A stretch of DNA of 64,000 nt from Candidatus Marinacidobacterales bacterium (GTDB lineage: Bacteria > Acidobacteriota > Vicinamibacteria > Marinacidobacterales > DATDRI01): assembly GCA_965226495.1 (NCBI GenBank), contig OZ245365.1, positions 4,896,001 to 4,960,000 of the forward strand, read 5' to 3'. Below, in pieces: positions 927 through 20,686 of the stretch (position 1 is the first letter of the stretch; each line of letters begins with the position of its first letter). The notes beneath the pieces were generated by a model. The model saw only the letters and a list, made by a program, of their open reading frames with translations, made no database searches and was not told where the DNA came from. The position numbers and the translations under genes were made by a program.

Positions 927-1226
927 TCATAGGAGATGTCGATATTTTCGTCGGCCGTGGAGGACTCGATAGATCCGAATCTGGCGTCGCAACACTTTGT
1001 AAAAGATCAGATACTCGTTCACTATGAGAACGCGGTAACCGCGAGCCCGAAGGACCTCGTCCTTTGACAGGACGCCACGCTCGGGCAACTTCGCCAAGGT
1101 CTCGATCCTGTCCAGGAGCGCGTTGACCAGCCGCTCCGCGGCCTTTGGGCGATCCCGCCGGACGTAGTCGCGAATCTCGTTGAGGTCCGCTTGGGCCCGG
1201 CGAAGAATCCGGACCGAGCGCGTCAT
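927..1226 (-). CDS. RelE/ParE family toxin
   Basis: 99 aa, AQADLNEIRDY...YLIFY...IYRVLHGRR pattern; overlaps antitoxin stop. Confidence 0.88.
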   Translation of the reverse strand: MTRSVRILRRAQADLNEIRDYVRRDRPKAAERLVNALLDRIETLAKLPERGVLSKDEVLRARGYRVLIVNEYLIFYKVLRRQIRIYRVLHGRRKYRHLL

Positions 1227-1477
1227 CGCCTCAACAGTTTCCTCATCTTTGCCGGGCTCACACCCCTATCGCCGGCTCGGACGTCCTCTTCTGCTTCCCC
1301 CAGGAGGCGGTATAGTTCAAGACGAGCCTGATCGCGCTCGTACGTGGCGAGGCTCATGACAACCAAATCACCCTCCCCGTTTTTTGTGATAAAGACTGGC
1401 TCGCCTGTATCGTGGCAGACCTTCGAGATCTCGAGGCTTTTGTTTCGTAGGTCCGAGATGGGTCGTATTCGTGCCAT
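1223..1477 (-). CDS. Phd/YefM family antitoxin
   Basis: IRPISDLRN...EPVFITKNGEGDLVVMS signature. Confidence 0.9.
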   Translation of the reverse strand: MARIRPISDLRNKSLEISKVCHDTGEPVFITKNGEGDLVVMSLATYERDQARLELYRLLGEAEEDVRAGDRGVSPAKMRKLLRR

Positions 1478-1543
1478 GCGCGTCTCCTTTTTTAGGTTTC
1501 AGCATATCATAATTATGATAGGCCAACAAGAAGACTGTCTCGG

Positions 1544-2545: not shown

Positions 2546-2595
2546 GGTAGCTAGGCTAGGTGGGAGGTCTGGAGTTTGTCAAAGAGGTCCTGGCC

Positions 2596-3522: not shown

Positions 3523-3574
3523 ACCCGGTAAAATTCTAGGGGAAGTTGACGGAGACGGAATCAAAGGAGTGAAC

Positions 3575-5356: not shown

Positions 5357-6324
5357 ACCCAGTCCGAAGCATGCGATTAATTTTGGCGGTGGCGATCGCG
5401 TTCGTGGCGGTCGGGGCGACGCCTTCCTCCGCCCAAGTGCCGCCGCGCTTTTATTGGAAGAGCCTCATCGGCGGGCACGCGGTGCCGGTCATCGGCATGT
5501 CGATGGGCGGCAACGCAAACCCCATCGACCCAGCGCATACCGTGGTCCCGGAAGCGAGCTTCGAGGCCACCGTGGCCCTCGCCGGCTACGCCCATATCTT
5601 TACCCTTTTTGATCGGTCCGCCATGGCGGCGGTGCTCGTTCCCATGGGGCGACTCTCGGGTGACGGGTCGATCTTCGGCCGCACGTTCGGCGAAGACGCC
5701 AGCGGCTTCGGCGATCCGCTGTTCGAGATCGACCTCAACCTCATCGGCCCCGAGCCCATCCGGAACATCCCCGATCTCATCCGCTACGAACCTGGCTTCT
5801 CCCTCGATGTTCTCGCCGACCTGGCTTTTCCTATCGGCGAGTACGACAGCGAAGAACCGCTGAACCTCGGCCAGAACCGTTGGTATGGCCGCGTCGGCGC
5901 CCCCATCGTATGGCAGCTCGGACCGTGGATCCCCGGCCGCCGGACCACCGTAGAGTTGCTACCCTCGGTGTGGCTTTTCGGCGACAACGATGACTTCGTG
6001 GGTCGCAACCTCTCCACCGATCCTATGTTTCAGCTCGACGCTCACTTGACGCGTGATTTGGTCGAGCAGTTCTGGGCTTCGTTCGATGTGACCTGGGTGA
6101 CCGGCGGCCAAGCCAGCCTCGATGGCGTCACGGGTGAGAAGATCGACAACCTCGGGGTCGGTCTCACGCTCGGTTACCAGCTCAATGACAACCTGCAGGT
6201 CACTGCAGGCTACATGGCCACGGTGAACGACGGTGAGCCCACTGACTTGCGCATGGACCGGTTCCGAGTCTCGCTGGTCTTCGGCTGGCACCCGCTCGTC
6301 GAAGGCATGAAGCGGCTCGAGTGA
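5353..6324 (+). CDS. Outer-membrane transporter, phenol MetA-pathway-like beta-barrel
   Basis: Signal peptide, SGFGDP, PIGEYD...NLGQNRW motifs. Confidence 0.7.
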   Translation: MNPVRSMRLILAVAIAFVAVGATPSSAQVPPRFYWKSLIGGHAVPVIGMSMGGNANPIDPAHTVVPEASFEATVALAGYAHIFTLFDRSAMAAVLVPMGRLSGDGSIFGRTFGEDASGFGDPLFEIDLNLIGPEPIRNIPDLIRYEPGFSLDVLADLAFPIGEYDSEEPLNLGQNRWYGRVGAPIVWQLGPWIPGRRTTVELLPSVWLFGDNDDFVGRNLSTDPMFQLDAHLTRDLVEQFWASFDVTWVTGGQASLDGVTGEKIDNLGVGLTLGYQLNDNLQVTAGYMATVNDGEPTDLRMDRFRVSLVFGWHPLVEGMKRLE

Positions 6325-7067
6325 GCCGTGACGGCATGAGGCGCACACTCGTGCTGGTCCCGCTGCTCATTGGAAGTATCGCGCAGGCCCAAGATCAGGA
6401 GGACTCGGCACAGTTCTGGGGAACCGCGGTTTTTGGCTTCCCCAAGGGTGACCGCCTCCTTGCCGAGATCCGCACCCAGGCGAAGACACAATACTCGGGG
6501 GCTGAGACGTGGCGAGACCTTGAGGTAACTCCGGTCGTCGAGTACTACCCGAATCGATGGCTAGATGTCGTCGGCGAAGCGACCTTCGGCTGGACCCGAC
6601 AGACGAGCGACGTGAGCACGGTCGAGCTCACGCCGAGACTCGGTGCGCGGTTTCATTTCCTGAGCAACGTCAGGACGATGCTCGATCGGAATCCTCTTGG
6701 CCGGGTCGCTGTCTCCGACCTCGTCCGCTTCGAGCAACGGAATTTCTGGTACTCCGACGGAAGCGCGAGCCACGAGACGCGGCTTCGCAATCGGGTCGGG
6801 CTCAAGGTCGCGCTCAACCACGCCGAGCTAAGCCGCGATGGCACGCTCTACTGGATCGCCGATTTCGAGTTCTTTGTGCCGCTGTCGGGTGACGTGCCGG
6901 AACGCTTCGCGAGTAAGCGGCGCACGCGGGCGGGCCTCGGCTATCGCCGGAATAATCGCTGGCGGTTCGAGGCTCTCTATATTCGTGACACGGCGCGGGA
7001 CACGACCGACGAGGAGTTCGACACCGCCGCCAACATTGTAAACGCGAGGATCAAGATTCTCTTTTAG
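6321..7067 (+). CDS. DUF2490-like outer-membrane beta-barrel
   Basis: Signal peptide, RFEQR and RLRNR motifs, terminal Phe. Confidence 0.6.
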   Translation: MSRDGMRRTLVLVPLLIGSIAQAQDQEDSAQFWGTAVFGFPKGDRLLAEIRTQAKTQYSGAETWRDLEVTPVVEYYPNRWLDVVGEATFGWTRQTSDVSTVELTPRLGARFHFLSNVRTMLDRNPLGRVAVSDLVRFEQRNFWYSDGSASHETRLRNRVGLKVALNHAELSRDGTLYWIADFEFFVPLSGDVPERFASKRRTRAGLGYRRNNRWRFEALYIRDTARDTTDEEFDTAANIVNARIKILF

Positions 7068-7076
7068 GAGGCTCAG

Positions 7077-7832
7077 ATGTATCGAAAACTGTCTAAGAAT
7101 CGCCAGAAAAGAAGAGAGCAGGCCCCGAAGCTCACGACACACCAGCTTCGAGGATACCAAGTTCCAGTACTGGTCGCGTCGCTGGCACTCTCCTCCCTCG
7201 CCTTCGGCCAGCAAAAAGAAGAATTCGCTCAGGCCCAGAAAGAAAACGGCGCCGCTCTCAAGCAGTACACGTGGAAATCACGCACCGAGATGAAAATGAA
7301 GGGTGAATCGAAAAGCGTGAAGCTCGAGCAGGTACGCTACGACCTAGACGGCAAGCAACAGAAAACGGCTATCGGCGAGCCGCAGAAGCAACAGGCACAA
7401 CAGGGGGGCGGTGGTCGGCGTGGAGGAAGAATGAAAGCGAAGATGATCGAGAAGAAAAAAAAGGAGTTCGCCGAGCTCATGAAGACTCTTGGCCAGCTCG
7501 TTGCCTCCTACGCGCACCTGCCTCCAGACAAAATGCAAGCCTTCGCCCAAAACGCAACGATGGGACCCACTGAAGACGGTGGCGTAATGATCCAGGGCCT
7601 AAACGTCTTGCATCCAGGGGACACGATGAGGGTATGGATCGATCCCGCGAGCTACATGATGCGGCGCGTCGAGATCAACACGGCCTACGATAAGAACCCG
7701 GTGCACTTCGCAGGGGAGTTTCGCCCCGTCTCGGACGGACCGACCTATCCGGCACGGCTTGTGCTCGAGTATCCGGATGAGGAGGTCGAGCTCGTGATCG
7801 AGAACTACGATTACCAGAAAGTCGGGATGTAG
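7077..7832 (+). CDS. Hypothetical exported protein
   Basis: AGGAGG RBS, hydrophobic stretch ending AFG-QQ, LKQYTWKSRTE. Confidence 0.65.
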   Translation: MYRKLSKNRQKRREQAPKLTTHQLRGYQVPVLVASLALSSLAFGQQKEEFAQAQKENGAALKQYTWKSRTEMKMKGESKSVKLEQVRYDLDGKQQKTAIGEPQKQQAQQGGGGRRGGRMKAKMIEKKKKEFAELMKTLGQLVASYAHLPPDKMQAFAQNATMGPTEDGGVMIQGLNVLHPGDTMRVWIDPASYMMRRVEINTAYDKNPVHFAGEFRPVSDGPTYPARLVLEYPDEEVELVIENYDYQKVGM

Positions 7833-7834
7833 TC

Positions 7835-7933
7835 ATGAAGACATATCGCTTCTCACCGATCCTCGCTTCGCTTCTTTTCGCCAGCGGCGCCCTCGCGCAG
7901 GAATCTCCACCGATCCATCCGAAAGTCGGAGGA
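7835..7933 (+). pseudogene. 5' remnant of an exported protein gene
   Basis: Clear signal peptide MKTYRFSPILASLLFASGALAQ, then the frame runs into an antisense kinase fragment. Confidence 0.5.
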
Positions 7934-8164
7934 CTATTGAAGGCGGCAGATGTGTGGATGATTCAGACTGGAGACGGCGCGGGCTTCTCGCTCGAATCGC
8001 TCTTTGAGTTGCGGGTTATCGGAAAGATGAGAGGGAAGGACTTTAATGGCGACCGTACGATCGAGTCGAGTGTCCTTGGCTTTGTAGACCTCACCCATGC
8101 CACCCGCACCGAGAGGTGCGAGGATTTCATAGGGACCCAGCTTAGTGCCGGGAGTTAATGACAT
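7934..8164 (-). pseudogene. Truncated Hanks-type Ser/Thr protein kinase (N-lobe only)
   Basis: LGAGGMGEVY, VAIKVL, RFEREARAVSSLNHPHIC, then stop. Confidence 0.88.
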
Positions 8165-8519
8165 GGCCAACCCTTTGAGCGTGAAAATAGCGCTCTACAG
8201 GCAAAAAATTCAACGGGGGCCGTCGGTCGCTCCCGGGAAGCCGTCAGCTCCTTACTTATGATCCCGGGCCAATGCCTTCCCCCGCTGGCTCGAGGATGCT
8301 ATTCTTCAGCTTCTTGAGCAGGGGAGAACGCAGCCACGGAGCGAAAATCCACCGGCATCGGAGGGCCACCCGCGATCAAAATCCCATCCCCTACTACGGC
8401 AAGCGTCGCTCGTCCGAGCTCTGGGACATGATAGTTCAGGGACGCACGGAAGAATTCCTCCGGGCAGGTCGTTCTAGCGGAGGACGCAATGGTGATCGAC
8501 ATCGCGTAAGGAGTGGATC

Positions 8520-9440
8520 ATGAGGAAAGAAAGACTATTGCCGATAGTGGTAGGTCTCTTACTCGCAGCCGCTTCGACGGCGCAGGACAGGTCGAAATAC
8601 TACACGAACCAGCATCCGGAGGAGTTCCTGCCGCTGGACTGGATTGCATTCTACGACGAGATCGATGCGAGCACGGCGGCGACCCGCAAGGAGTTTCCAC
8701 ATCACCTGGACTTGGCCTTCGGCAACGATCCCAAGCAGAAGCTGGATCTTTATCTTCCCAAGGAAAAGGCGGAGGGCGCTCCCACGTTCTTGTTCCTGCA
8801 CGGGGGCGGTATGCGCGAAGGGGACCGCGCCCATTACGGATACATCGCACGGCCATTTGCCGCCAACGGCATCATCACGGCCGTAGCTAGCTACCGGCTC
8901 GCCAGCAACGGATTCCAATATCCAGCGCAACCCGAAGATGCCGCCGCCGCGGTAGCCTGGATTCATAAGCATGTCGAGGAGTACGGAGGCGATCCGCAGC
9001 GCATCTACGTGGGGGGCCATTCGGCGGGCGCGCTTCTCGCCGCCTACCTTGGCGTGCAAGGCGCCTGGCGACAGAAAAAGGGAATACCAGACGGAGTGCT
9101 CAAGGGCATCGCACCGGTCAGCGCTCCCTACGACGGCGAAGATGCAGAGACGGAAGCGGAGATAGCGACGGCGCGTGTCGTTCGCCGGGCGGGGGAGGTC
9201 GATGCGTCCGTCCCAGATCCCGACAAACCCCCGCCCCGCGCGGTAGTGGCCGTCGGTTCCGTGGAAGCGTACGTAGACTCATCTCGGGAATTCGCCGACA
9301 AGTTGAGGGCCAAGGGCGTGGAGGCGGAGTTCCTCGTTTTAGAGGGCGAGGATCACGCCCAGACAGCACTATCCCTAGGCGATGAAGACAGCGAGCTCTT
9401 TCGCGCCGTGCTGAAGATGATTCAGATTCAGACTCCATGA
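8520..9440 (+). CDS. Alpha/beta hydrolase (HSL family esterase), exported
   Basis: HGGG, GHSAG, GEDH motifs; signal peptide. Confidence 0.88.
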   Translation: MRKERLLPIVVGLLLAAASTAQDRSKYYTNQHPEEFLPLDWIAFYDEIDASTAATRKEFPHHLDLAFGNDPKQKLDLYLPKEKAEGAPTFLFLHGGGMREGDRAHYGYIARPFAANGIITAVASYRLASNGFQYPAQPEDAAAAVAWIHKHVEEYGGDPQRIYVGGHSAGALLAAYLGVQGAWRQKKGIPDGVLKGIAPVSAPYDGEDAETEAEIATARVVRRAGEVDASVPDPDKPPPRAVVAVGSVEAYVDSSREFADKLRAKGVEAEFLVLEGEDHAQTALSLGDEDSELFRAVLKMIQIQTP

Positions 9441-9640
9441 CCGACTCGCGGCCGTGGTGCGAAGAATCCCCAACCTGCGCTGGTGGATCGTAGCCCTTCT
9501 TTTCCTGGCCACGGCCATCAGCTACATCGAATCGCTAGACCCTTGCGTCGTCGCGCCGACGTTGCGGGACGAGCTAATAGGGATCTCCAACTGCGGCTAA
9601 GCCCGCATCCTCTCCAGCTTTCTCCTGGCCTACGCGGTCA
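9437..9640 (+). pseudogene. Frameshifted 5' fragment of an MFS transporter (ExuT-like)
   Basis: Encodes RIPNLRWWIVALLFLATAISYI followed by disrupted frames. Confidence 0.65.
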
Positions 9641-9661
9641 TGAAGGGGTAGTCTCTGTAAC

Positions 9662-9674
9662 TTGGTACCGGGGG
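9662..9674. other. Attachment-site core of the serine recombinase element
   Basis: TTGGTACCGGGGG identical to 18800-18812 (tRNA-Leu 3' end). Confidence 0.7.
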
Positions 9675-9940
9675 GGCGGCATTTCTAGAAGTACCTAAGC
9701 GGCGGTACCGGATTGGCGGGCGGCTGGCGGATGACGCTCGGTTACTCTACTGAATCCCCAACCTGCGCTGGTGGATCGTAGCCCTTCTTTTCCTGGCCAC
9801 GGCCATCAGCTACATCGAATCGTACCCTTGCGTCGTCCCGTCGAGCGGATCTCCAACGGCGATTTGAGCCATTTATCGTAAGGCCCAGCGGGGTAATGTT
9901 ACTCTACTTCGTATCCCGTCCGGACGGCGATTTGAGCCAT

Positions 9941-10711
9941 TTATCGCCCAGCGGGGTAATGCAACTTGAACGAGATCCAGAAAAACCCTAGAACAAAGGA
10001 AAGTGCCCAACCAACCGCCCATCCTCCGAATATCACGGTCGACGACATGCCAATCGCTACCACAACACCCACCAATCCAAGGAGAACCAAATATATGACC
10101 GGCTCACCATAACGGTAGTGAAAGGGCCTCCTACGCAACCAACGATTGTTGATGCCTTCCCCTTTGGTCAAGCCGCCTAGCTGCCCGGCCGTTGTCCACC
10201 GGAAATCGATTTCTGAGATGTCCACAATCTCAGCCCGAACCTTCTCCTCATCTCCAGTCGAATACGGAGCCGCTACCAACGTCTCCAGCAACACCTTCGT
10301 ACCAGGGTTGAACAGATCCCACCGAATTTCGACTCTGTGGGGGCTCTCCACGTTCTTGCTGTCGAAGATGCTCTTGTAGTGAAGAGTCACTGTAGAATCG
10401 CTCTTCGTGATCTTGGCTCCGAGAACACGCCCCGGGGCATCCCAGGTCAGTGGGGTAACGATCTCATCCCCCTTCAAAGGTTTTTGCCCCGCGTTCTCGA
10501 TTACGAACGCAAACTTCGTGAGATCCTGGATCGTCGCCTGTTTGAACTGGATCGAGACCTCGTCAGTTAAATCCTCAGCCACCGCCATCATGGAGGTTGG
10601 GCGGAGTGCGCACCAAACAAGGCGGCGCTCCTTCCTGAAGAAGGTTAGGTAGATGGTAGCAAGAGCAGCAAGAGCAAGAACGCCAGTGCCAAAACCTACA
10701 AGAAATTGCAT
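9941..10711 (-). CDS. Hypothetical membrane protein (1 N-terminal and 2 C-terminal TM helices)
   Basis: 256-aa ORF with hydrophobic ends and a beta-rich middle. Confidence 0.7.
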   Translation of the reverse strand: MQFLVGFGTGVLALAALATIYLTFFRKERRLVWCALRPTSMMAVAEDLTDEVSIQFKQATIQDLTKFAFVIENAGQKPLKGDEIVTPLTWDAPGRVLGAKITKSDSTVTLHYKSIFDSKNVESPHRVEIRWDLFNPGTKVLLETLVAAPYSTGDEEKVRAEIVDISEIDFRWTTAGQLGGLTKGEGINNRWLRRRPFHYRYGEPVIYLVLLGLVGVVVAIGMSSTVIFGGWAVGWALSFVLGFFWISFKLHYPAGR

Positions 10712-10746
10712 CCAAACCCCTACTCAGTCAATTGCACCTAATGCTA

Positions 10747-10959
10747 CTACCTTTTCTTCTTCTGGGCACGGGCCTTTGCTTCGCGGGCGGTCTTGGCGGC
10801 GTGTTGCTTTTCTGTAAGAAGTTGTAGGTTGGGAACCCTATCTGATCCACCGTCTTCAAGCGGGACTTTGTGGTCTACTTCCTTTCCTTTCGGAATCTTC
10901 GTCAAACCCTTCTTCTCCAGAAATCGCTCTACAACCTTTGGATCACGCTTGTTCGGCAT
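10747..10959 (-). CDS. Small HNH endonuclease
   Basis: EVDHKVPLEDGGSDRVPNLQLLTEKQHAAKT; ATG at 10959 after GGGAG. Confidence 0.85.
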   Translation of the reverse strand: MPNKRDPKVVERFLEKKGLTKIPKGKEVDHKVPLEDGGSDRVPNLQLLTEKQHAAKTAREAKARAQKKKR

Positions 10960-10984
10960 GATGACTCCCTTCGTTTCTAAGGCT

Positions 10985-11570
10985 ACCCCCCTGCCGGGCT
11001 TCGCGCAAGAAGACCCGGTACCTGAGAATCGCCGGAACCTCCCGCGTAGCATGGCGCGAGTCCAAGATCGGGAACGCCCGGTAACGTACCAGATCGCCGG
11101 GGCGCTGCCGGCGGGTGCTCCCTGACCTAAGGTCAGGGTCAGGCTGTGTTACAGGGGTTTCGATTTCGTGAAAAAAGGACCCAGCCGCCCCGGGGCGGAC
11201 ACACCATGTGAACCGGGAACCCCCTGGGCAAAGCTAGGCCGCTGAAACGGACCCGAGCGTCGAGAACTGGCGGTCCCTGCCGCCGCCTCTAGCTCGGAAA
11301 TGATTCCGTGTCGGCATTCCAACTATTAGACCCTAGTCGGCCGAAAAAAACGGTGATTTCTACGTTGGGGTTTACCTCACATTCTGTTAGGGGGAATTCC
11401 CTACGATCACTCCTCGCGTGGGTCGACGCGCAGTCGTCGGAGGCAGCGTGACGATCCCCAAGGTTCCTAAATCCAGGAACCCCTGCACCGCCGCACCCGC
11501 CCATCGAGGCGGAATTACATGATTACATCCTCGCCCGCGCCGCCCGGCGCAAGTGGCGGAGGTTCGGGTA
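10985..11570 (+). ncRNA. Candidate structured ncRNA 1
   Basis: Chain of hairpins, GCAA loops, G-U pairs on + strand, no credible ORF. Confidence 0.35.
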
Positions 11571-11692
11571 GGGGGTCCCCGGGCCGCGGCGTCGTCAATG
11601 CTAACCTCTGGTAAAGTATCGGACCAATTGGTCCTATTCTTTTCGGGCTGTCCTACCGTCGTAGGGGCGCCCCTCGCTGCGAGCAAACCCCC

Positions 11693-11724
11693 ATTTCGAT
11701 CGCGCAAATTTGCGCGATCGAAAT
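11693..11724. repeat. Perfect 32-bp palindrome
   Basis: ATTTCGATCGCGCAAA|TTTGCGCGATCGAAAT. Confidence 0.95.
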
Positions 11725-11907
11725 CATTCGGCAAATTTGCCTCTTGATTTTCGGTTGTTCCGATCGCGGGTAGGGGTTCGCGTCCCGCGCTGCGAGCTTC
11801 AAAACCCCCCCGCTTAGCACATTCGAAGCATAACATCAAGCAAAAGTAGCCTCTGTAACTCGCTGTGTTATAATAGGTTACTAAGTTTCTTCAAAAGTCA
11901 AGAACAC

Positions 11908-11936
11908 TTGACTTTTTAGTGTTTTTGTAGTATAAT
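11908..11936 (+). promoter_or_regulatory. Sigma70 promoter with overlapping inverted repeat
   Basis: TTGACT-17 bp-TATAAT; AAAAGTCAAG-aaca-CTTGACTTTT covers the -35. Confidence 0.75.
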
Positions 11937-12095
11937 GCCTGCGAACAAAAAATCAATCCTTAGTTTCCTTTCTTGGTGATACTGCCGGCGGGGCTACGTA
12001 GCCCCGCCGCGCGTCATTGTTTCACCTCGAAAGTCGAAGCGTTATCAAGAAAGGTCCCAGAATATGAGAACCACCAAAAAACCGGAGATCCTCCG

Positions 12096-12689
12096 ATGTT
12101 ACAGGTAGTGATCCCGAGCCCTAACCTCCCTATCCCTCACTTCCCGCCGATGCCGATGCCGTTCCGCCGGCCGCCCCGCAAGGATCCGCGTCCGTATATA
12201 CCCCCGCTGCCCGATGGGGGGCGGGGTGATTTCGTCCCCGTCCCGCAGGTTGAGCCGCGGAATTCGGAGGCGGAACCCCAAGCGGCTGCGGAGCTACTCG
12301 ATCTCGAAGTCAGGCGCACATCCGAGCGCGATAGAAAGCGGCGCTATCGCATGCAGCGCCGCCTCGCTACGGGCACCGACCGCCCTCCCCTGACGCCCAT
12401 ACAGGCCCAGCGGGCTCGGATGTCCACGTTCGAGTGGACCCGGAAGAACCCCGAAAAAAAAGCGGCTCAGAACAGGCTAGCGGCTCGCCGACTGGCGGAG
12501 ACGTACGAGGGGCATCCTATCCGGCTAATTGAAGGCTTCCCCACATCGAGGGAAGTTGAAGGGCCTCCAGTTGAGCCTTTAACCAGATTCGAGCGGGATA
12601 ATTTGATGGCTAAATTTTTCCCATCTTGTAATCCGCAAACTGGCCGGATTACAAACCATTTACAAGAATCATTCACTCTTAAACACTGA
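12096..12689 (+). CDS. Hypothetical Pro/Arg-rich protein
   Basis: Open frame downstream of the promoter, GGAG RBS before ATG; start uncertain. Confidence 0.45.
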   Translation: MLQVVIPSPNLPIPHFPPMPMPFRRPPRKDPRPYIPPLPDGGRGDFVPVPQVEPRNSEAEPQAAAELLDLEVRRTSERDRKRRYRMQRRLATGTDRPPLTPIQAQRARMSTFEWTRKNPEKKAAQNRLAARRLAETYEGHPIRLIEGFPTSREVEGPPVEPLTRFERDNLMAKFFPSCNPQTGRITNHLQESFTLKH

Positions 12690-12936
12690 CACGAGGGGGT
12701 TTACTGTACTATGAAGGCATCTTGTAATCTTGTAACCTGTAATGTGGCTTCCTATAGGGTAAGGGCAAGATACGGTCCCATCCCGTCCCACCACCCCCAA
12801 ACGGGACCGTATCTGGGATTAGTAGTCTATATAGTTATTACAAGATTACAAAATTACAAGATACTATAACTAACAGATAACAACGGATTTACCTCGTAAA
12901 CATCTTGTAAATGAGGATATTACATGAATACAAGAT
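12620..12936. repeat. Inverted iteron-like array around a central inverted repeat
   Basis: ATCTTGTA repeats (12719-12743) face ATTACAAG repeats (12837-12862); IR AGATACGGTCCC/GGGACCGTATCT between them. Confidence 0.75.
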
Positions 12937-12980
12937 CAACCCCCTCGCTAGCGCGGAGGACACAAACGAAAGGAAAAAAA

Positions 12981-13499
12981 ATGAGAAAAACCGAACGACA
13001 GGCCCGGAGGTCAGACATGGCTCGCCGGCGGCCCGATGTTGAAACTGAATCCCGCATCACAACACCAGACGACGACGCCCCGGCCCCCTCGTGGGTCAGG
13101 TCAGCTCCCGGCGGCACAGCCGGATGGGCTAGCGCGGCCGGCCTCGTGGGCAAGGTCGCTATTACGATGCCCGAGGGGGCCGGATATTTTTTGCCATTTT
13201 ACTCGAAAGTTTTGATCGTCAATATGCAGCAAGCAAAAATTTCGTATTTGGTCGACAGCGTTTCGTGCTATCACGCGATGAATGGATTTTTCTTCGAGCC
13301 CGACGTCGAAAGCCTCGTGGAAGTTTTGGATGTTGCACAAGAAAACTTTAGAAAGAAAATTGCCCATCTAAATCTTATTGAAGATCAGCCGATAGAAACC
13401 GCGCTCGGCAAGCTGGCGAAATTTCCAATTTTAAAACTTGCTTATGATCGCATCTCGGCCGTCGTTGAATTCCAACATATTGAGAAAGGATCACACTAA
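12981..13499 (+). CDS. Hypothetical protein
   Basis: AAGGA RBS; stop overlaps next start (TAATG). Confidence 0.65.
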   Translation: MRKTERQARRSDMARRRPDVETESRITTPDDDAPAPSWVRSAPGGTAGWASAAGLVGKVAITMPEGAGYFLPFYSKVLIVNMQQAKISYLVDSVSCYHAMNGFFFEPDVESLVEVLDVAQENFRKKIAHLNLIEDQPIETALGKLAKFPILKLAYDRISAVVEFQHIEKGSH

Positions 13500-14371
13500 T
13501 GCTCGACTTGTTTCGAAGTAATGCACCCCGAAGTTTGTTAACGGCACTCCGGCCGGAAGAAAGTTTTCGCGCCGCGGCAACCGCTGATCTAATCCCAGTT
13601 AATGAGGATCTTTTGGAACTCCTCGAACTCGATGCTACAGACAATTCCGCCTTCCAAATTATTGCACGGGAAGAACGCGATACATTTTTCGCAAACAGCG
13701 GCGAGTGGCTCGAAATTCACGACGTCGAGCCCGGCCTCGAAGGGCGCCCCCGACTCGCAGCAACCCGGGAGCGCATGCGATCGTTGGGCGAGAAATCCAA
13801 AACGATCTTAAATTGTGACGCCGATTTGAACGGGCGTTTCCCTAATTATTTAATCGAAATTAAAAACCGCCGCGCAATGATTTCTGACGAACTCAAACGG
13901 CGCTATGATCTCGACAATTATCCCCAGCAACTTGTGGATGCTTTTGATGCTCGCGACAAGCTCACCGAAGCTCTCGAACAATTGAGACACGAGCAGGTCG
14001 TTCTATACAAAAATAATCGGTTTGATAACGATTTCAAAGATCGCCTGCTAAAATTACAAAACCAACAACTAGATGCTCAAAACGCCCAGCGTAAACTTGC
14101 GAGGACTTTCGATGTCTACGGCAACCCCCAACGGCGGTGGACAACCCCCGAGGAATGGGCGCCGTTCCGCGAGCGGCGGCTACTGCGCGACGAAACTTTG
14201 CGCATAGAAAAACAGCGGGTAGAACTCTCGCCGAATTTGGAGGCGCAAGCTGTTTTATTGGGAACAAACAAAATCGAAAAACCGCCGAGGCCGTACCCGA
14301 AAGCGGAAACGAAACCCCCCGAGCCCTCGGCACCGCCGACTACTTTAGACGGAGGCTTGCTGAGAAAATAA
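13499..14371 (+). CDS. Hypothetical coiled-coil protein
   Basis: 290-aa ORF coupled to the upstream gene. Confidence 0.7.
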   Translation: MLDLFRSNAPRSLLTALRPEESFRAAATADLIPVNEDLLELLELDATDNSAFQIIAREERDTFFANSGEWLEIHDVEPGLEGRPRLAATRERMRSLGEKSKTILNCDADLNGRFPNYLIEIKNRRAMISDELKRRYDLDNYPQQLVDAFDARDKLTEALEQLRHEQVVLYKNNRFDNDFKDRLLKLQNQQLDAQNAQRKLARTFDVYGNPQRRWTTPEEWAPFRERRLLRDETLRIEKQRVELSPNLEAQAVLLGTNKIEKPPRPYPKAETKPPEPSAPPTTLDGGLLRK

Positions 14372-14373
14372 TA

Positions 14374-14835
14374 ATGGATAACGTTAGAATAGAATACCCC
14401 CCGGAAACGGCGGAAACGGCGCCCCTAGTTTGCACGAGAATTGCGGACGCGGTTAAACTAAAAGTTGAGCATGCGCAACTGGCGAAGTGGCTCACGGATC
14501 TTGCAGAGCCCCACGTGAAAAAGCATCTCCCCGCGTGGAGGGTCGAAGTTGCAGAGTCGATCACGTCTAAGCAACTCAAAAGAGAATGCCGCGCGTTGAC
14601 TCTCGGTGGCCCGAAAATCATTAAGTTATCGATGTCGGCCCTCGGCAAGTTAACCCGCGAGCAAGTCGAAAACATAATCATGCACGAGATCGCGCACGGG
14701 CTCACACATGACGCGGGACGAGCTACTCGCTTCCATCACGGCCCTGCGTGGCAAGATGCCGCGAAGAATCTGGGGGTGAAGTTTGATACCCGCGATCTTG
14801 TTTTTTCGGATTCTCTTAATATGGGGTTGAAGTAG
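14374..14835 (+). CDS. SprT-like zinc metalloprotease
   Basis: IIMHEIAHGL (HExxH) plus HHGPAWQ...LG. Confidence 0.8.
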   Translation: MDNVRIEYPPETAETAPLVCTRIADAVKLKVEHAQLAKWLTDLAEPHVKKHLPAWRVEVAESITSKQLKRECRALTLGGPKIIKLSMSALGKLTREQVENIIMHEIAHGLTHDAGRATRFHHGPAWQDAAKNLGVKFDTRDLVFSDSLNMGLK

Positions 14836-14844
14836 AATTTCAAA

Positions 14845-15585
14845 GAGACTCACCGCTGCGAGCACTTTGTGATCCAGAAGGATTACAAGACTGAAGCCCA
14901 GGTTTAGGCACCGTGTGGTGCTAGCGTCACCGCCCATCCCAAGTTGGCGGAAATAAAAGTCGCGCCCGATAAAGTTAATGTGCTTAAGGTGTTGTTCACT
15001 TCATTCGCCTATCAATGGTCGGGTCGAACCGCCCGATAGGAAAGAGGTGATCAACTGGTCCGAGGTCCGAGGTGAGAACCCTTGGTTAGGTAAACTTGGT
15101 GATAGGGCGCACCGCTTGCCCAAGAGCTGCCAGCGGTGCATAACCCGTGATTTCGAGGGGGCGTAAACCCCCTCGAAACATTTTAACAAAACATTCTCCC
15201 CCCCTCCCCAAGGGATAAGGCTCACCCGCGACGGGTGAGCCTTAACTTTGGGGCGCGGCGCTCGGCTTGAGCCACGCCCTCGATCAACTGTATTTAGCCA
15301 CAGCGAGGGCGTGTGCCCGCCAGCGTTTGCAGCGTCGAGCCTGCGGGTGTCTGTGCGCTTGAAAGGGATAGGCACGCCAAGAATTTAAGAACGATTTTAG
15401 AAACGCCGGGGGCTCTCTTCCACCCCGGCTAGGGCACACTCCGATTGCCTCGGAGTTGTGCCCGAGGGGATTGGGTGGGTTGGGAACGGGATCACCGTCG
15501 GCCCTCTCCGCGGGGACGCGCTCCCTCCCCCCCGGCCCCTCATCGGACTGCGAGAACGGCGACACTTGACGTTAGTGTTAGCTCG
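14845..15585 (+). ncRNA. Candidate large structured ncRNA 2
   Basis: At least ten stem-loops, several with 10-13 bp perfect stems; G-U pairs on + strand; T-loop-like motif. Confidence 0.45.
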
Positions 15586-15803
15586 AAGCGAAAAAGAAAA
15601 AAAGATATTTAGTAATACGGTTGCCCTCAACTCGAAGCGGTAGGGACTCGAAAACCACGGAGGGGGGTGGGTGTCTACGCGAGCCCGGCCAGTTTTACAC
15701 TTTGCCGCCACTTTTTTCGAGATATATCAGTAAAAATAATGGTGTCGCGATTTTTCAATCGCGCAAAACCCCCGAAAATCAGGGGAGATAGGAGCGAAAA
15801 CGA

Positions 15804-16055
15804 ATGATTTCCAAGGAAAAGGCATTAGAAAGCGCCCTCTGTCATCACGACAGTCCCGAGCACCGGCTGATGGCCTGCTGGCAGTGTAAAACCGGATACG
15901 GAAATCGAAAACCGGAAGCCAAGTGCCGATCCGCGTTGGTTTTCGGGGGGACCTTCATAACGCCCGAAGGCGAGATGCCGATCTGCTTCGAGTGTAACAA
16001 AGTCGAAGAAAAACGGCGAGAGATGGCAGAGCAAGAGCGATATGGCAAAAAATAA
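15804..16055 (+). CDS. Small Cys-rich (zinc finger-like) protein
   Basis: CWQC and CFEC motifs; AGGAG RBS. Confidence 0.65.
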   Translation: MISKEKALESALCHHDSPEHRLMACWQCKTGYGNRKPEAKCRSALVFGGTFITPEGEMPICFECNKVEEKRREMAEQERYGKK

Positions 16056-16479
16056 AGTCGGACGCCCTCGCAAGGGCAGCAAGGTCGATTTCGAGGCGGT
16101 GAGGGATCTCGCGATCCGCGGCGTCGAGCACGCCGATATCGTCGAGCACCTCGGGATCCATGAGCTTGTGCAAGTACAAGAGGCTAGCGTCAAGGTTCGA
16201 GAGACTGTGCGAGCCGGCCACGCGCAATTCCGGATCGCTATACAAAAGAAGCTCTATTCGGAGGGGGTTCTCGAAGGCAAAATTTCCAGCCTAAGAACGC
16301 TTGCGGAGAATTGGCTCGACAGATATGGGGACGCCGCCCCGAAAATTGACGAGGCAGGGATCGTCGAGGAGATCGCCTCCATCATGCAGGCCAACGCCGC
16401 GCTTCACAAAAAACACCACGCCGAAGAACCTTGCCACCTTGCCGGCTGCGGGACTTGCCGAGAACTACATGGGAACTAG
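16042..16479 (+). CDS. HTH protein, possibly terminase small subunit-like
   Basis: GRPRK N-terminus, then a helix-turn-helix-like segment (LAIRGVEHADIVEHLGI). Confidence 0.55.
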   Translation: MAKNKVGRPRKGSKVDFEAVRDLAIRGVEHADIVEHLGIHELVQVQEASVKVRETVRAGHAQFRIAIQKKLYSEGVLEGKISSLRTLAENWLDRYGDAAPKIDEAGIVEEIASIMQANAALHKKHHAEEPCHLAGCGTCRELHGN

Positions 16480-16831
16480 AAAAAACAAACCAAGCAAAAC
16501 CTCGCAGCCTCGTCCGCGAGGAACTGTGGTCAGCCGAGTATCCGAAGCCCTCGGCGCTTTTTTCGGCGGCGATCTCGCGGATATAACGATCACCCTCGCG
16601 GACGGCTCGCAGATCAAAGTTACGGCGGCGGAGGTAATCCAGCGCGATCAACGTCGAGAACAATTCGAGATCGAGATCGACGAGCCCTTGCGGCTGCGGC
16701 TACTCGAAGCCCGCCGTCAGCACTTCCGAAAACACCACCCCGAAGTTTTAGGATTATCTCGCGGCGAGCCGGTTGACTCTGTGTTCGTCGGCACCTTGCA
16801 AGAATTTTTCCAGCGGCGACGCCGCCGCTAA
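16469..16831 (+). CDS. Hypothetical protein
   Basis: Overlaps upstream stop; operon-like spacing. Confidence 0.6.
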   Translation: MGTRKNKPSKTSQPRPRGTVVSRVSEALGAFFGGDLADITITLADGSQIKVTAAEVIQRDQRREQFEIEIDEPLRLRLLEARRQHFRKHHPEVLGLSRGEPVDSVFVGTLQEFFQRRRRR

Positions 16832-16854
16832 TAACGAAAGGAAACAAAAAAACA

Positions 16855-17067
16855 ATGGCAGATTATGACGGCACAGAATTAGAAAAGCTAGCAGAGAAGA
16901 CGTCGCCCGACGAACTCGGCGACTTGATACTACGCCTCGAAGCGCGGGTCAGCTTAATTCAATTTCGGGTTAACGATCTGGAGCAAAGCGCTTACAAATC
17001 ACAAGAACAGATTCGAGCACTCGAAACGCGCAACGCGGAACTCGAAGCCCGTGCGGAGGTTCTATGA
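16855..17067 (+). CDS. Small coiled-coil protein
   Basis: AAGGA RBS, heptad leucines. Confidence 0.65.
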   Translation: MADYDGTELEKLAEKTSPDELGDLILRLEARVSLIQFRVNDLEQSAYKSQEQIRALETRNAELEARAEVL

Positions 17068-17216
17068 AGCTCAAGAAAAAACCTCGCCAGCTAGGTCGGT
17101 ATGGGCGCGGCTGGGCTTGGGTTACGAAGAAGAAAAGGAAAAATGGAAGGCACCGGATCCGTGACATACGGCGGGCTCCCGGCGGGCTGGATCTCGATTC
17201 TATGGGGTTGATCTGA
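17064..17216 (+). CDS. Possible 50-aa basic protein
   Basis: ATGA overlap with upstream stop, GGAGG RBS; MKLKKKPRQLGRYGRGWAW... Confidence 0.4.
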   Translation: MKLKKKPRQLGRYGRGWAWVTKKKRKNGRHRIRDIRRAPGGLDLDSMGLI

Positions 17217-17247
17217 AACAATCACGACGTTAAAAGGAGGTGATCTT

Positions 17248-18903
17248 ATGAAAGCCGCAATTTATGCACGAAAATCCACAGCTCAGAACGTATCTGAAGA
17301 TGCCAAGTCCGTCACGCGGCAGATCTCAAGGGGCAAGAAATTCATCGAATCAAAGGGCTGGAACCATGCCGGTGACTACGTTGATGATGCCACGAGCGGC
17401 GGATCGTTGGATCGTGAGGGTCTAAACAACCTATTTCGGGATGCAACAGCGGGCAGGTTTGATGCGGTCGTGTTCTATGACCTAGACCGCTTCTCCCGTG
17501 CCGATGCTATCGACACCCTAGTTAAGCTTCGGGATTTAACAAAACTTGTAGATGTTTGGGAGTATGGGAACGGCCAACAACTGACGGTTGGTGATCTCCA
17601 GAGCATTATGATTCACTTCGTGGCATTCAGCAATCAACAACAGCGAAAATCCGCTAGCAAAGACACCCGGGAGAAGATGCAGACAGCAGCCAGCGAGGGT
17701 CTTGTTACTGGTAACAAGATCTACGGTTTTGACAATATTGGGCCAAGGGGAAAACGGCAGCGGGTGCCGAATGAGAAACAAGCCGTTATCGTCCGGGAGA
17801 TCTTTGACCGCTACTCGCAACGCGAAGGACTAAAGGCAATCGCACATATTTTGAATGATCGGGGTATCCCCTCCCCTAATCAGAGACAGAGCGGTTGGTC
17901 TCCCAGCACTGTCCGCTGCATTCTCAAAAACAGGATCTACCGGGGTGAAGTTATCTATGGACGTTCCCGCCGATGTGACGAGCAGGATTTACCAGAGCAT
18001 CTTCAGGGACTCCGAAAAGAACCGCGTGTCTGTGTTGATGAATCAAATTGGATCATTACGAACATGGATCCGCTGGTTGATCCCAAGACATTCGATCTTT
18101 GTGCCGCACGTTTTGAATCTCGTAAGCAGAAAAGCGGCCAGCGGAGAGCAGCCCGAAACGTGAGACACCTACTGAGCGGGTTACTAACTTGCCCCTGTGG
18201 CGCTTCATTGGAAGCCGTCAAGAGTGGGCAGCGGAAGCAATCGTATTACGTTTGTAGTCGGAGACGCCGAAAGGGCGCTGCGATGTGCTCGAACACGATC
18301 CGGCTGGAAGTAGAGAAGACAGACGCGATCATTCTCGATGAACTAGAAAACAGTGTGCTTAGTCCTAAGTTTGTATCACGGATCTTGAATGAAGCCCTCT
18401 CAGACGGGGAACCCGCTACCCAGCTGGAGGTGGAGCGGGAGCGGCTCGTTTCGGAAATCGGGAATCTGACGAAGGCTGTTGCCATCGGAGGCGGCGATAT
18501 CCCGGAGCTAGTAGCAGCCCTTCGGGAGAGAACGAAGGCACTAACCGCCGTTGAGGCGAAACTAGCAGCCCGGACAGAGAGACCGGATCGGAAGCAACTC
18601 CGGGAAGCCGTCGAGCAGAGGTGTTCGGAGTGGCGGGAGGTTCTCCGCTCGAACGTAGAAGCGGGAAGGGCGCTCCTAAAGTCCCTTGTGGGGCCGCTGG
18701 AGGTTCATACACCGCCACCGAAGGAGCTAGCCGACAAATATGCTTCCTGGTCGGCTGATGTGAAGCCGGAAGGGGTAGCCCTCGAAGTGAGTACTTCAGT
18801 TGGTACCGGGGGCGGGGATCGAACCCGCACGAGGTTTCCCCCAGGGGATTTTAAGTCCCCCGCGTCTGCCATTCCGCCACCCCGGCAAGAATGTAGTCAA
18901 TAA
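17248..18903 (+). CDS. Large serine recombinase (integrase)
   Basis: IYARKST catalytic motif, DLDRFSR, recombinase domain, CPCG...YYVC...C zinc ribbon, coiled coil; AAGGAGGT RBS. Confidence 0.95.
   Translation: MKAAIYARKSTAQNVSEDAKSVTRQISRGKKFIESKGWNHAGDYVDDATSGGSLDREGLNNLFRDATAGRFDAVVFYDLDRFSRADAIDTLVKLRDLTKLVDVWEYGNGQQLTVGDLQSIMIHFVAFSNQQQRKSASKDTREKMQTAASEGLVTGNKIYGFDNIGPRGKRQRVPNEKQAVIVREIFDRYSQREGLKAIAHILNDRGIPSPNQRQSGWSPSTVRCILKNRIYRGEVIYGRSRRCDEQDLPEHLQGLRKEPRVCVDESNWIITNMDPLVDPKTFDLCAARFESRKQKSGQRRAARNVRHLLSGLLTCPCGASLEAVKSGQRKQSYYVCSRRRRKGAAMCSNTIRLEVEKTDAIILDELENSVLSPKFVSRILNEALSDGEPATQLEVERERLVSEIGNLTKAVAIGGGDIPELVAALRERTKALTAVEAKLAARTERPDRKQLREAVEQRCSEWREVLRSNVEAGRALLKSLVGPLEVHTPPPKELADKYASWSADVKPEGVALEVSTSVGTGGGDRTRTRFPPGDFKSPASAIPPPRQECSQ
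18801..18886 (-). tRNA. tRNA-Leu(TAA)
   Basis: Cloverleaf GCCGGGGTGGCGGAATGGCAGACGC GGGGGA-CTTAAAA-TCCCC, long variable arm, GGTTCGAT, CCA end. Confidence 0.96.
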
Positions 18904-18957
18904 TGGAAGGCATTGTGCCACAGGCCAGGCCGGCAGCACATCGAGACGAGCCCGTTA

Positions 18958-20172
18958 TCAACGACTATCGACGATGTGAGCTCGGGAGATGTTCGCTATC
19001 GAGGTGGTTCCCGCCTGGCGCATGATGCTCTCGAGCTCGCGGCGCAAGATTTCCAGAACCGCTTCCACCCCCTCCTGACCGAAGGCGCTGAGGCCCCAGA
19101 GATAGGGCCTTCCGATGGCAACGGCGTTCGCTCCGAGCGCCAAGGCCTTGAAGATGTCCGTACCTCGGCGGAAGCCGCCATCGACAATAACCGGAATCCG
19201 TCCGGACACCGCCTCGACAACCTCGGGTAGACACTCGATGGTCGACCGGTCGCTGGGTTCTTTGCGACCGCCGTGGTTCGACACGATGATGCCATCCACG
19301 CCGTGCTCGACCGATAGCTCGGCGTCCTCACGAGTCACGATCCCCTTGAGGAAGAGCTTCATCGTCGTCGTGTCTTTGAGCCGCTTGATGTAGTCCCAGT
19401 CCATGTCTGACGGGATCTCGTCTATTACCCCAGAGACGTCGATACCGTCGAACATAGGCCTCCTCTTCACGATGCCAACCCACGAGCTCCAGTCGTGACA
19501 CGTTTCGCAATTGCGGTCGTCTCGCTTGGCGAACCGCTGAGCGGTTTCACGGTTTTCGGCCCCTTGGCCATCGATGGTCAGGGCGACGGCCGGACAACCT
19601 GCCGCCTCTGCCCTTTTTACGAGCCGTCGGGCGATGCTCCACTCGTCGGTCGGATAGAGCTGAAACCAAACGGGGGCGCCGGTCGCTTCCGTGACGTCTT
19701 CGACCGAGGATGTGGCGACCGTCGAGAAAACCTGAAGATGTTTCTTCACGCGGGCGGCTCGGGCCACGGCTAGCTCTCCCTCAGGATGAAACGCTTTTTG
19801 GCTGGACGTGGGTGCCAAGATGATCGGCGTCTCCCACCGGACTCCCAGGAGCTCGACCGACATGTCGATCCGGCTCACGTCGATGAGGCGTCGCACTCTG
19901 AGCTGAAACTTCTGGAAGCCTTCGCGGTTTGCGCGAAGCGTCCCATCGTCGTCTACACCAGTCGCGAGGTAACCGTAGTGGGCGGGGGGTAGGACTTTCT
20001 GGGCGACCTCGCGAAAGTCGAAGACGTTCAGGGCGTCTTTGGGTTGGGTAATTGCCCCACCGTCAGCGCCTAACTGAAGCCAGCCGGGAGCGCCATGGAC
20101 GAGGAGAGGGCTCGCTGCCATGAAGCGCAAGAATTGGCGACGGTTCTCGAGTTGGTCGAAACGCTGCGACAT
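18958..20172 (-). CDS. FMN-dependent alpha-hydroxy acid oxidase/dehydrogenase with twin-arginine signal
   Basis: VSNHGGR, DGGFRRGTD, GRPYLW motifs; N-terminal NRRQFL. Confidence 0.92.
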   Translation of the reverse strand: MSQRFDQLENRRQFLRFMAASPLLVHGAPGWLQLGADGGAITQPKDALNVFDFREVAQKVLPPAHYGYLATGVDDDGTLRANREGFQKFQLRVRRLIDVSRIDMSVELLGVRWETPIILAPTSSQKAFHPEGELAVARAARVKKHLQVFSTVATSSVEDVTEATGAPVWFQLYPTDEWSIARRLVKRAEAAGCPAVALTIDGQGAENRETAQRFAKRDDRNCETCHDWSSWVGIVKRRPMFDGIDVSGVIDEIPSDMDWDYIKRLKDTTTMKLFLKGIVTREDAELSVEHGVDGIIVSNHGGRKEPSDRSTIECLPEVVEAVSGRIPVIVDGGFRRGTDIFKALALGANAVAIGRPYLWGLSAFGQEGVEAVLEILRRELESIMRQAGTTSIANISRAHIVDSR

Positions 20173-20203
20173 CACACCCCTCGACAAAACTTTGGAAGAC
20201 GAT

Positions 20204-20407
20204 CTAGGCCGAGTCGACCGCCTTGGCGTCGGGGTCGCTGATGCGTATGGATACGTCGATATTGAAATTCTTTTCGCAGGAGCGACAGTAGTAGATCGAG
20301 CTCGATCGACCAACCGTATGCAGCTGTTCCCAATGGCAATTGGGGCAGATGAACACAAAATTCGCGCTGTAAAGCACAGTGCTCTTTGGCTTGCTCTTTT
20401 CCGACAA
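20204..20407 (-). CDS. Small zinc-ribbon protein
   Basis: CPNC...CRSC in 67 aa. Confidence 0.55.
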   Translation of the reverse strand: MSEKSKPKSTVLYSANFVFICPNCHWEQLHTVGRSSSIYYCRSCEKNFNIDVSIRISDPDAKAVDSA

Positions 20408-20455
20408 TCGGTTGCCCCATTGGAACCGACGCTCAGAGGGGAAGGTTATGAGGGC

Positions 20456-20531
20456 TGGAGGCGGCGAGCGGATTCGAACCGCTGAATAAAGGTTTTGCAG
20501 ACCTCTGCCTTAGCCACTTGGCTACGCCGCC
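20456..20531 (-). tRNA. tRNA-Cys(GCA)
   Basis: GGCGGCGTAGCCAAGTGG...CTGCAAA...GGTTCGAATCC...CCA. Confidence 0.96.
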
Positions 20532-20611
20532 TCAATTACAAATAAATAAGGCTGCCTGCCTTCCCGCTCGGCTCTTTTCAGCGCCATCCGAGCGGCACTT
20601 CTCAAGATTCA

Positions 20612-20686
<75 letters not shown>

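Follow-up and report, generated by a model that had tools for sequence, protein, structure and literature searches.

A serine-recombinase element of orphan genes and hairpin-dense non-coding DNA at the tRNA-Leu(UAA) gene of a Candidatus Marinacidobacterales bacterium

The genome of a Candidatus Marinacidobacterales bacterium (Acidobacteriota, Vicinamibacteria; assembly GCA_965226495.1) contains an island inserted at the 3' end of its tRNA-Leu(UAA) gene. The analysed stretch of 64,000 nucleotides (nt), contig OZ245365.1 from 4,896,001 to 4,960,000, is referred to as the window, and all coordinates are positions within it. The island occupies 9662-18812, with 9,138 base pairs (bp) between its terminal repeats, and is single-copy in its own genome. 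The initial annotation of the region had described a discrete element of about 9.1 kilobases (kb) with an intact-looking large serine recombinase, small and mostly unrecognisable open reading frames (ORFs), and an unusual share of structured non-coding DNA, and had proposed that its function may rest on large RNAs. The element proves to have sharp, repeat-bounded ends and a recombinase with invariant catalytic residues, and the remaining description of its contents is largely accurate, whereas the proposed role of large RNAs is not borne out.

The terminal direct repeats, TTGGTACCGGGGG, are 13-nt copies of the tRNA-Leu 3' end and form the cores of the attachment (att) sites attL (9662-9674) and attR (18800-18812). 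Exact copies of this sequence occur at these two positions only in the whole 6.34-Mb genome. The integration target, tRNA-Leu(UAA), is located on the minus strand at 18801-18886 (ARAGORN and Rfam) and is the sole gene with this anticodon among the 52 tRNA genes of the genome. It stays whole because the element supplies its own copy of the last 13 nt. Approximately 20 nt outside attL (left of 9662) resemble the 3' flank of tRNA-Leu in the relatives G001 and G003, and rightward synteny with G001, G002, and G003 begins at 18796-18801 and breaks at the tRNA end. Together, the exact repeat ends, the flank of the relatives, and the synteny break establish a true insertion, and the ends given in the initial annotation are therefore right to the base. 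The guanine-cytosine (GC) content of the element is 0.51-0.57, compared to approximately 0.60 in its surroundings. No element DNA was detected in 40 related genomes (G007 included); their matches are limited to the tRNA and a short fragment of a major facilitator superfamily (MFS) gene. Because of its lower GC content, its absence from these relatives, and its single copy, the element is considered foreign. The locus has the features of a tRNA-integrated genomic island, namely the position at a tRNA 3' end, the direct repeat at the other end, and relatives without the island.

The element is present in other sequenced populations. Thirteen sequencing runs, with no RNA run listed among them, contain at least half of the sampled words, and contigs, not reads, of four runs from four studies were examined. 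Contigs of all four runs span attL and attR in the integrated form, with zero to three differences per 5-6-kb contig, and loose contig ends at 18800 carry unrelated sequence. Relative to this assembly, the contigs of all four runs share two insertions (GTAAG after position 9945 and AAAA after 11902) and a substitution of C for G at 11698. They also skip positions 9741-9897, and this 157-nt segment, which holds a second copy of the 5' fragment of the neighbouring MFS gene, is therefore private to this assembly. Positions 9752-9822 are 100% identical to 9464-9534 (71 nt of the MFS fragment). The segment is either a real duplication or an assembly error. The truncated 5' fragment of the MFS transporter gene itself (9454-9646) adjoins attL, and the copy within the element extends over 9752-9861. 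No diverged copy of the element was found in any collection searched.

The large serine recombinase is encoded on the plus strand at 17248-18903 and is recognised by Pfam, PHROGs, and NCBIfam. It has the composition of its family: a resolvase catalytic domain with the nucleophilic serine (PF00239, Resolvase, 4.4e-20), a recombinase domain (PF07508, Recombinase, 1.4e-20), and a zinc ribbon (PF13408, Zn_ribbon_recom, 4.6e-12). The match to phrog_95 reaches 3.5e-90. Catalytic residues S10 and R8 and the four zinc-ribbon cysteines form invariant columns in an alignment of 29 sequences, and the recombinase is intact as judged from its sequence. The reading frame, which lacks a stop codon ahead of attR, continues across it into the tRNA gene. 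The consensus C-terminus of 28 recombinase relatives also resembles translated tRNA sequence. Because the frame runs into the tRNA gene and the C-termini of the relatives look tRNA-derived, the tail of the protein may differ between the integrated and excised forms.

The best relatives of the recombinase among 5.8e9 proteins are 35-40% identical to it, and phage serine integrases are approximately 26% identical. Among 400 further genomes of the phylum, matches at E ≤ 1e-30 are confined to three, with identities of up to 40%, and the neighbourhoods of these three genes have no cargo in common with the element. As a single query, the recombinase gave one 22-residue match (E 2e-4) in genome contigs and none in viral or metagenome contigs. 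The 29-sequence alignment used as the query retrieved 80 metagenome and 77 viral loci. These loci and the three genome loci have in common with the element no ORF other than the recombinase, and no DNA. Collecting homologous elements through the recombinase, as suggested in the initial annotation, thus yields relatives that share no cargo with it, and the cargo ORFs tested are without homologues.

Integration into tRNA genes is usually credited to tyrosine integrases in the accessible text of a published account (PMC4383910). In the 80 metagenome and three genome loci, 22 of the 53 recombinase copies that include the C-terminal part face the 3' end of a tRNA within 300 nt; when restricted to copies with at least 250 nt of downstream sequence, the count is 15 of 33. 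The tRNAs faced by recombinases of the clade are those for Glu, Arg, Ser, and Lys, and Leu in this element. In the two closest relatives (L023 and L026), the tRNAs flank the recombinase gene on its opposite side, and the tRNA-facing geometry is therefore common, not universal. By sequence comparison, the geometry of the element is typical of the loose clade of its recombinase (identity 40% or less). At three loci (L065, L092, and L105), a 13-17-nt repeat starting from the last base of the tRNA bounds complete elements of 10.4, 7.45, and 4.5 kb, respectively. These three resemble the element in having the recombinase at one end, directed toward the tRNA 3' end, in the length of the repeat, in their size class of 4.5-10.4 kb, and in their mostly unrecognised ORFs. 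They differ from it in that the recombinases are approximately 30% identical at most, there is no common cargo, and approximately 90% of their sequence is coding according to naive ORF calls, compared to approximately 71% in the element. The cargo of the clade varies by locus. It includes a large-terminase-like gene together with an HTH_3 repressor, which also sets L092 apart from the element, DnaB-type or primase-helicase genes, TrwB and TrwC (L040), a Zot-type ATPase (L037), and RES and PIN genes. The Zot-type ATPase gene of L037, an inovirus hallmark, is located just upstream of the clade recombinase. Most relatives in the clade have a recognisable replication or transfer gene, whereas the element has none.

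Two genes at the left end of the element are on the minus strand. The first (9941-10711) encodes a 256-amino-acid membrane protein with hydrophobic segments at both termini, one at the N-terminus and two or three at the C-terminus. The second (10747-10959; longest ORF to 11052) encodes a 70-amino-acid HNH endonuclease, is supported by PF01844 (1.8e-4) and phrog_333 (8.6e-10), and has the Shine-Dalgarno-like sequence AAGGGAG ahead of its start. The only match of the element to defence-system models is a weak homing-endonuclease match of this HNH protein. An IscB-like identity of the HNH protein was rejected, since the NCBIfam match spans the HNH motif only and scores 23.6 bits against a cut-off of 175, and there is no match to Rfam families of the omega-RNA type.

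The remaining genes are on the plus strand. ORF4 (12096-12689) encodes a 197-amino-acid protein rich in proline and arginine, with an isoelectric point (pI) of 10.6. ORF5 (12924-13499) encodes up to 191 amino acids, and its codon periodicity suggests a start near 13167. ORF6 (13499-14371) encodes a 290-amino-acid protein predicted to be all-helical, and is followed by an ORF (14374-14835) for a SprT-like protein of the zinc metalloprotease fold with the motif HEIAH (PF10263, 9e-9 on the longer ORF). ORF8 (15804-16055) encodes an 83-amino-acid, zinc-ribbon-like protein, and the two CxxC pairs in its translation agree with the Cys-rich ORF of the initial annotation. ORF9 (16042-16479, 145 amino acids) possibly encodes a helix-turn-helix (HTH) or small-terminase-like protein, which is a lead only. 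ORF10 (16469-16831) encodes 120 amino acids with a pI of 11.0. ORF11 (16855-17067, 70 amino acids) is coiled-coil-like, as had been claimed, and its coiled-coil matches in Pfam are weak and below the cut-offs. ORF12 (17064-17216), immediately upstream of the recombinase, encodes 50 amino acids with a pI of 11.9 and is a candidate for a recombination directionality factor.

The profiles thus uphold the HNH and SprT-like assignments of the initial annotation. The membrane protein, ORF4, ORF5, ORF6, and ORF8 to ORF12 match no family in Pfam, PHROGs, NCBIfam, or PADLOC, in line with its description of mostly unrecognisable ORFs, and ORF8 has no family match at E ≤ 0.1. The sole match of ORF6 among 5.8e9 clustered proteins, and likewise in a HMMER search of 1.84e9 representatives, is ORF6 itself, and it has no usable match in the Atlas. 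The homologue search with ORF9 also returned only the query. In the Atlas, which is based on a language model, the neighbours of ORF9 at 0.91-0.94 are viral hypothetical proteins and HTH_23, GP3_package, and Sf6_terminase clusters, in which a minority of the members carry these names. The terminase-like HTH protein of the initial annotation therefore keeps this soft lead, and it has no hidden Markov model match in Pfam or PHROGs. ORF5, ORF6, ORF9, and the membrane protein had no tblastn match in phage records, where the SprT-like ORF had matches at the motif level only. For the SprT-like ORF, the 400 further genomes of the phylum yielded three weak matches, with E values between 1.5e-4 and 8.1e-4. 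The DNA of the element has no match among phages or plasmids, and a sequence search of the PDB gave nothing useful. Structure prediction, which had been suggested as a check, was uninformative: single-sequence AlphaFold2 models calculated with no alignment were poor, with predicted local distance difference test (pLDDT) values of 51 for ORF6 and 53 for ORF9.

The GC periodicity at codon positions backs the called ORFs. Start and stop codons overlap or are at most three bases apart at 13499, 14371/14374, 16042-16055, 16469-16479, and 17064-17067. Because of this periodicity, the tight packing of starts and stops, and the lack of pseudogene relics among the frames searched, the genes of the element look alive.

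According to coordinate arithmetic on the gene calls, approximately 71% of the element is coding and 29% non-coding. Two large non-coding regions occupy 10960-12095 and 14836-15803. Codon periodicity is absent at 10930-11830 and 14890-15790, and the first gap begins at 10960 or 11053, depending on the length of the HNH ORF. None of the 56 stop-to-stop frames of at least 35 amino acids in the non-coding parts matches Pfam at E ≤ 0.01, and the regions are therefore not obvious gene wrecks. Folding of the whole regions gives z-scores of -5.5 to -7.4 on both strands. In 200-nt windows, strong folding is concentrated at 11600-12100, 12700-12900, and 15100-15600, the last within a hairpin-dense core of 15000-15600. 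The two hairpin-dense regions of 0.6-0.75 kb in the initial annotation are thus real, with narrower cores than proposed. The z-scores on the two strands are -8.1 and -8.7 at 11600-12100, and -7.7 and -5.6 at 15000-15600. Folding windows with z ≤ -4 are approximately eight-fold enriched in the element (7 of 90, 100-nt step) over the rest of the analysed stretch (2 of 217, 250-nt step), and the claim of an unusual share of structured non-coding DNA holds. Approximately 90% of the pairs in the structured segments are Watson-Crick, and both strands fold about equally, which is the signature of DNA inverted repeats. In Rfam 15, the tRNA alone reaches its gathering score, and the only other matches at E ≤ 1 are three chance matches to microRNA models.

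The first hairpin-dense core contains a 32-nt perfect palindrome (11693-11724) composed of two TTTCGATCGCGCAAA half-sites. Allowing at most one mismatch, the half-site has three copies in the genome, all in the element: two constitute the palindrome, and the third (15753-15767) is 37 nt upstream of ORF8. Because the half-site recurs only ahead of ORF8, the palindrome is read as a candidate operator. Its 26-mer has no match in viral contigs. A near-consensus sigma-70-like promoter, TTGACT-17-TATAAT, matches at 11 of 12 positions on the plus strand (11908-11936), with its -35 element within a hairpin at 11893-11916, and a weaker divergent match (9 of 12) is present on the minus strand at 11956-11929. 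A terminator-like hairpin followed by a T-run is located on the minus strand at 11194-11180. Between ORF4 and ORF5, inverted arrays of the 8-bp unit ATCTTGTA/ATTACAAG (12719-12862) flank a hairpin with a 12-bp stem (12768-12814). The units are at 12719-12743 and, inverted, at 12837-12862, and correspond to the iteron array of the initial annotation. Seven of the nine copies of CTTGTAA in the 64,000-nt stretch are within 12625-12910. The 50 matches of the iteron 17-mer in viral contigs were dismissed as chance, since these contigs have a GC content of 37% and no proteins in common with the element.

It is very unlikely that the two structured regions of approximately 1 kb are genes for large non-coding RNAs working with small basic proteins. 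The two long ORF-free regions, their strong folding scores, and the several very basic small proteins of the element fit such genes, and the minus-strand hairpin at 11194-11180 could end a leftward transcript of approximately 750 nt. However, there is no match in Rfam, a library that includes large ornate RNAs and families of the omega-RNA type, and the folding has no strand asymmetry. The structure consists of local palindromes, the regions contain DNA signals resembling promoters and operators, and homologues for covariation were not found. The perfect palindrome is not kept among strains. The chance is slimmer still that the element is a minimal hitch-hiker free of nucleoside triphosphatases (NTPases), in which large RNAs, such as a leftward RNA of approximately 750 nt ending near 11180, and very basic orphan proteins commandeer the replication or packaging of a helper. 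If true, this would be an RNA-based satellite strategy in place of a replicase.

Capsid, portal, primase, helicase, relaxase, and repressor families are missing among the ORFs of the element in scans of Pfam, PHROGs, NCBIfam, and PADLOC, in agreement with the initial annotation. A Walker A motif is absent from all six frames of the element, which therefore encodes no helicase, large terminase, Zot-type ATPase, or partition ATPase. An inovirus-like identity was rejected because of the missing Walker A motif and the lack of a match to PF05707 (Zot/pI-type ATPase). We infer dependence on a helper from these missing functions: an element that lacks an NTPase, a capsid, a replicase, and a relaxase would have to rely on one to reach a new cell.

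The best explanation, which we hold with about even confidence, is a non-autonomous integrative element of phage-like ancestry, the non-coding DNA of which is cis-acting. The large serine recombinase would have inserted a circle of approximately 9.1 kb at the tRNA-Leu(UAA) 3' end, a step that is strongly indicated by the ends of the element. The hairpin-rich region at 11.6-12.1 kb would be a control region, containing a palindromic operator and a strong rightward promoter, at the head of a run of approximately ten tightly packed small genes that extends rightward and ends in the recombinase. The HNH and membrane-protein genes point leftward. The hairpin-dense DNA probably acts in cis as operators, including the third half-site ahead of ORF8, promoters, and terminators. 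The inverted 8-bp repeat array could be a site of replication, packaging, or transfer. A cis-acting role is suggested by the promoter match of 11 of 12 positions in the hairpin region, the three-site operator motif, the equal folding of the strands, and the lack of an Rfam family. The phage flavour derives from leads: the HNH and SprT-like ORFs match PHROGs, and the nearest Atlas clusters of ORF9 are viral. The helper would more probably be a phage than a conjugative element; otherwise, the element may no longer move.

It is distinctly unlikely that the element is instead an integrative mobilizable element (IME), in which the hairpin DNA is the origin of transfer (oriT) with single-strand initiation signals for a co-resident conjugative system, and the SprT-like protein acts on incoming DNA, as ArdC-type proteins do. 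Dense inverted-repeat DNA without a relaxase or NTPase would suit such an element, and the clade relative L040 has TrwB and TrwC beside its recombinase. IMEs without a relaxase are described in the accessible part of a review (PMC5704250); like the element, they combine an integrase with cis-acting DNA and borrow transfer from a helper. They differ from it in that no oriT was recognised in the element, no oriT library having been searched, and in that its gene leads are phage-like, not conjugative: the HNH, SprT-like, and ORF9 leads point to phage proteins, and there are no conjugation genes in or beside the element.

The element could also be a dead remnant of a larger prophage or integrative element, stripped of its structural, replication, and transfer modules and now fixed in the chromosome; we consider this unlikely. 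All mobility modules except the recombinase are missing, and replication or transfer genes can be recognised in the elements that carry most of the recombinase relatives. In four studies, the element occupies the same site with a near-identical sequence, and the contigs of the four runs, which span the integrated joints, contain no excised circle and no empty-site joint. Other debris is present at the tRNA-Leu locus. On the other hand, both att cores are intact and unique, the recombinase is intact, the start and stop codons of the closely packed ORFs overlap or nearly adjoin, and none of the 56 non-coding frames contains pseudogene relics. The same recombinase clade also includes elements of 4.5-10.4 kb with both ends.

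The tRNA-Leu locus is, by sequence comparison, an insertion hotspot, because the flank on the side of the element varies among all relatives. The occupied side of tRNA-Leu differs in each of G001, G002, and G003. In G002, part of the tRNA is repeated at a distance of 1.9 kb, and an insertion sequence (IS)-like repeat with many copies in the genome studied here (G000) is located farther to the left. The G003 flank of tRNA-Leu maps in G000 to a position approximately 37 kb distant. The window contains a second, degenerate tRNA-Leu-like copy at 738-870, where 22 nt resemble the tRNA 3' end and are followed by an insert of approximately 45 nt and by 806-843, which is 97% identical to tRNA-Leu 18821-18858. 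The copy may be an old att remnant, and positions 870-9646 would therefore be older inserted DNA. To the right, tRNA-Cys(gca) and tRNA-Gly(gcc) are located at 20456-20686, 1.6 kb from tRNA-Leu. Many metagenome contigs, probably from other organisms, join tRNA-Leu straight to this tRNA pair without 18887-20455.

Several observations weigh against a mobile, helper-dependent element with cis-acting non-coding DNA. Given the lack of any excised circle or empty site and the near-identity at one site in four studies, the element may have become immobile and fixed. The genome revealed no resident helper: there is no match to the two large-terminase families searched, with other terminase families not searched, and the single HK97-type capsid gene of the genome is in a separate small island. 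The small-terminase identity of ORF9 is a weak lead, no more. The reconstructed attP, the attachment site of the circular form, has dyad symmetry around the core at 12 of 24 positions, essentially the level of shuffled sequences (mean 11.6). The operator, origin, and packaging roles are predicted from patterns in the sequence, and the non-coding regions may have RNA products. The palindrome, real and perfect in this assembly as had been claimed, is broken by one mismatch, the G to C change at 11698, in the contigs of all four other runs. The separate small island (G000:C1:3993000-4003200) contains a tyrosine integrase, a Mutator-family IS, the HK97-type capsid gene, and a VapE-like primase/helicase; from its sequence, this gene set looks like that of a capsid-encoding satellite.

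Phage-inducible chromosomal islands (PICIs), P4-like satellites, and PICI-like elements (PLEs) normally have a recognisable replication protein (primase, helicase, or Rep) and a repressor, together with genes for packaging or capsid redirection. The element resembles them in size and in being integrated, and like them it has small genes of phage type without a complete virion gene set. It differs from them in that none of those replication, repressor, and packaging or redirection families was found in Pfam, PHROGs, or NCBIfam. A PICI replication module, meaning a primase/helicase or Rep with an origin, is absent in these libraries and in the Walker A scan, and no repressor family was found with Pfam or PHROGs. 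For a PICI packaging (small terminase) or capsid gene, the sole lead is that of the Atlas neighbours of ORF9. There are no matches to the alpha primase-helicase, Sid/Psu, or a Delta/Ogr-type activator of P4-like satellites in Pfam, PHROGs, or NCBIfam. The EPIP satellites of Mycolicibacterium are helper-dependent, approximately 11 kb long, and encode a serine integrase, an HTH protein, and a small terminase (PMC12822802). They also encode head-tail adaptor, scaffold, major capsid, and tape-measure proteins (PMC12822802), none of which is detectable in the element. The likeness in size and serine integrase is drawn from the description of the EPIPs.

The tycheposons of Prochlorococcus, as presented in the accessible text of the preprint (bioRxiv 10.1101/2020.12.28.424599), are also small, integrate site-specifically at tRNA genes, and have no capsid or conjugation machinery. 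According to the same text, a minority (937 minus 910, that is, 27) have a large serine recombinase, and some are PICI-like with a small terminase (bioRxiv 10.1101/2020.12.28.424599). The element shares with them site-specific integration at a tRNA gene by a large serine recombinase. As far as that text describes them, many tycheposons carry replication genes (polymerase, primase, helicase), and hallmark gene families are common to the group, whereas the element is devoid of NTPases and no relatives of its cargo were detected. By analogy, its closest functional counterparts would be those few tycheposons that have a serine recombinase, satellites with a serine integrase, such as the EPIPs, and relaxase-less mobilizable islands. 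On the defining features tested in its sequence, the element fails as a member of the PICI, P4-like, PLE, EPIP, and inovirus families, and the expectation that it would match no defined satellite family is borne out.

In this very small integrative element, only a serine integrase and orphan genes are kept, which makes it a clean example of its kind. Because it fits no defined satellite family, it marks how incomplete the definitions are outside well-studied hosts. Its non-coding DNA offers candidate operator and repeat sites for orphan DNA-binding proteins. The clade of tRNA-facing serine recombinases may be a more useful result than the element itself, and serine integrases that target tRNA genes through short sites could find use in genome engineering.

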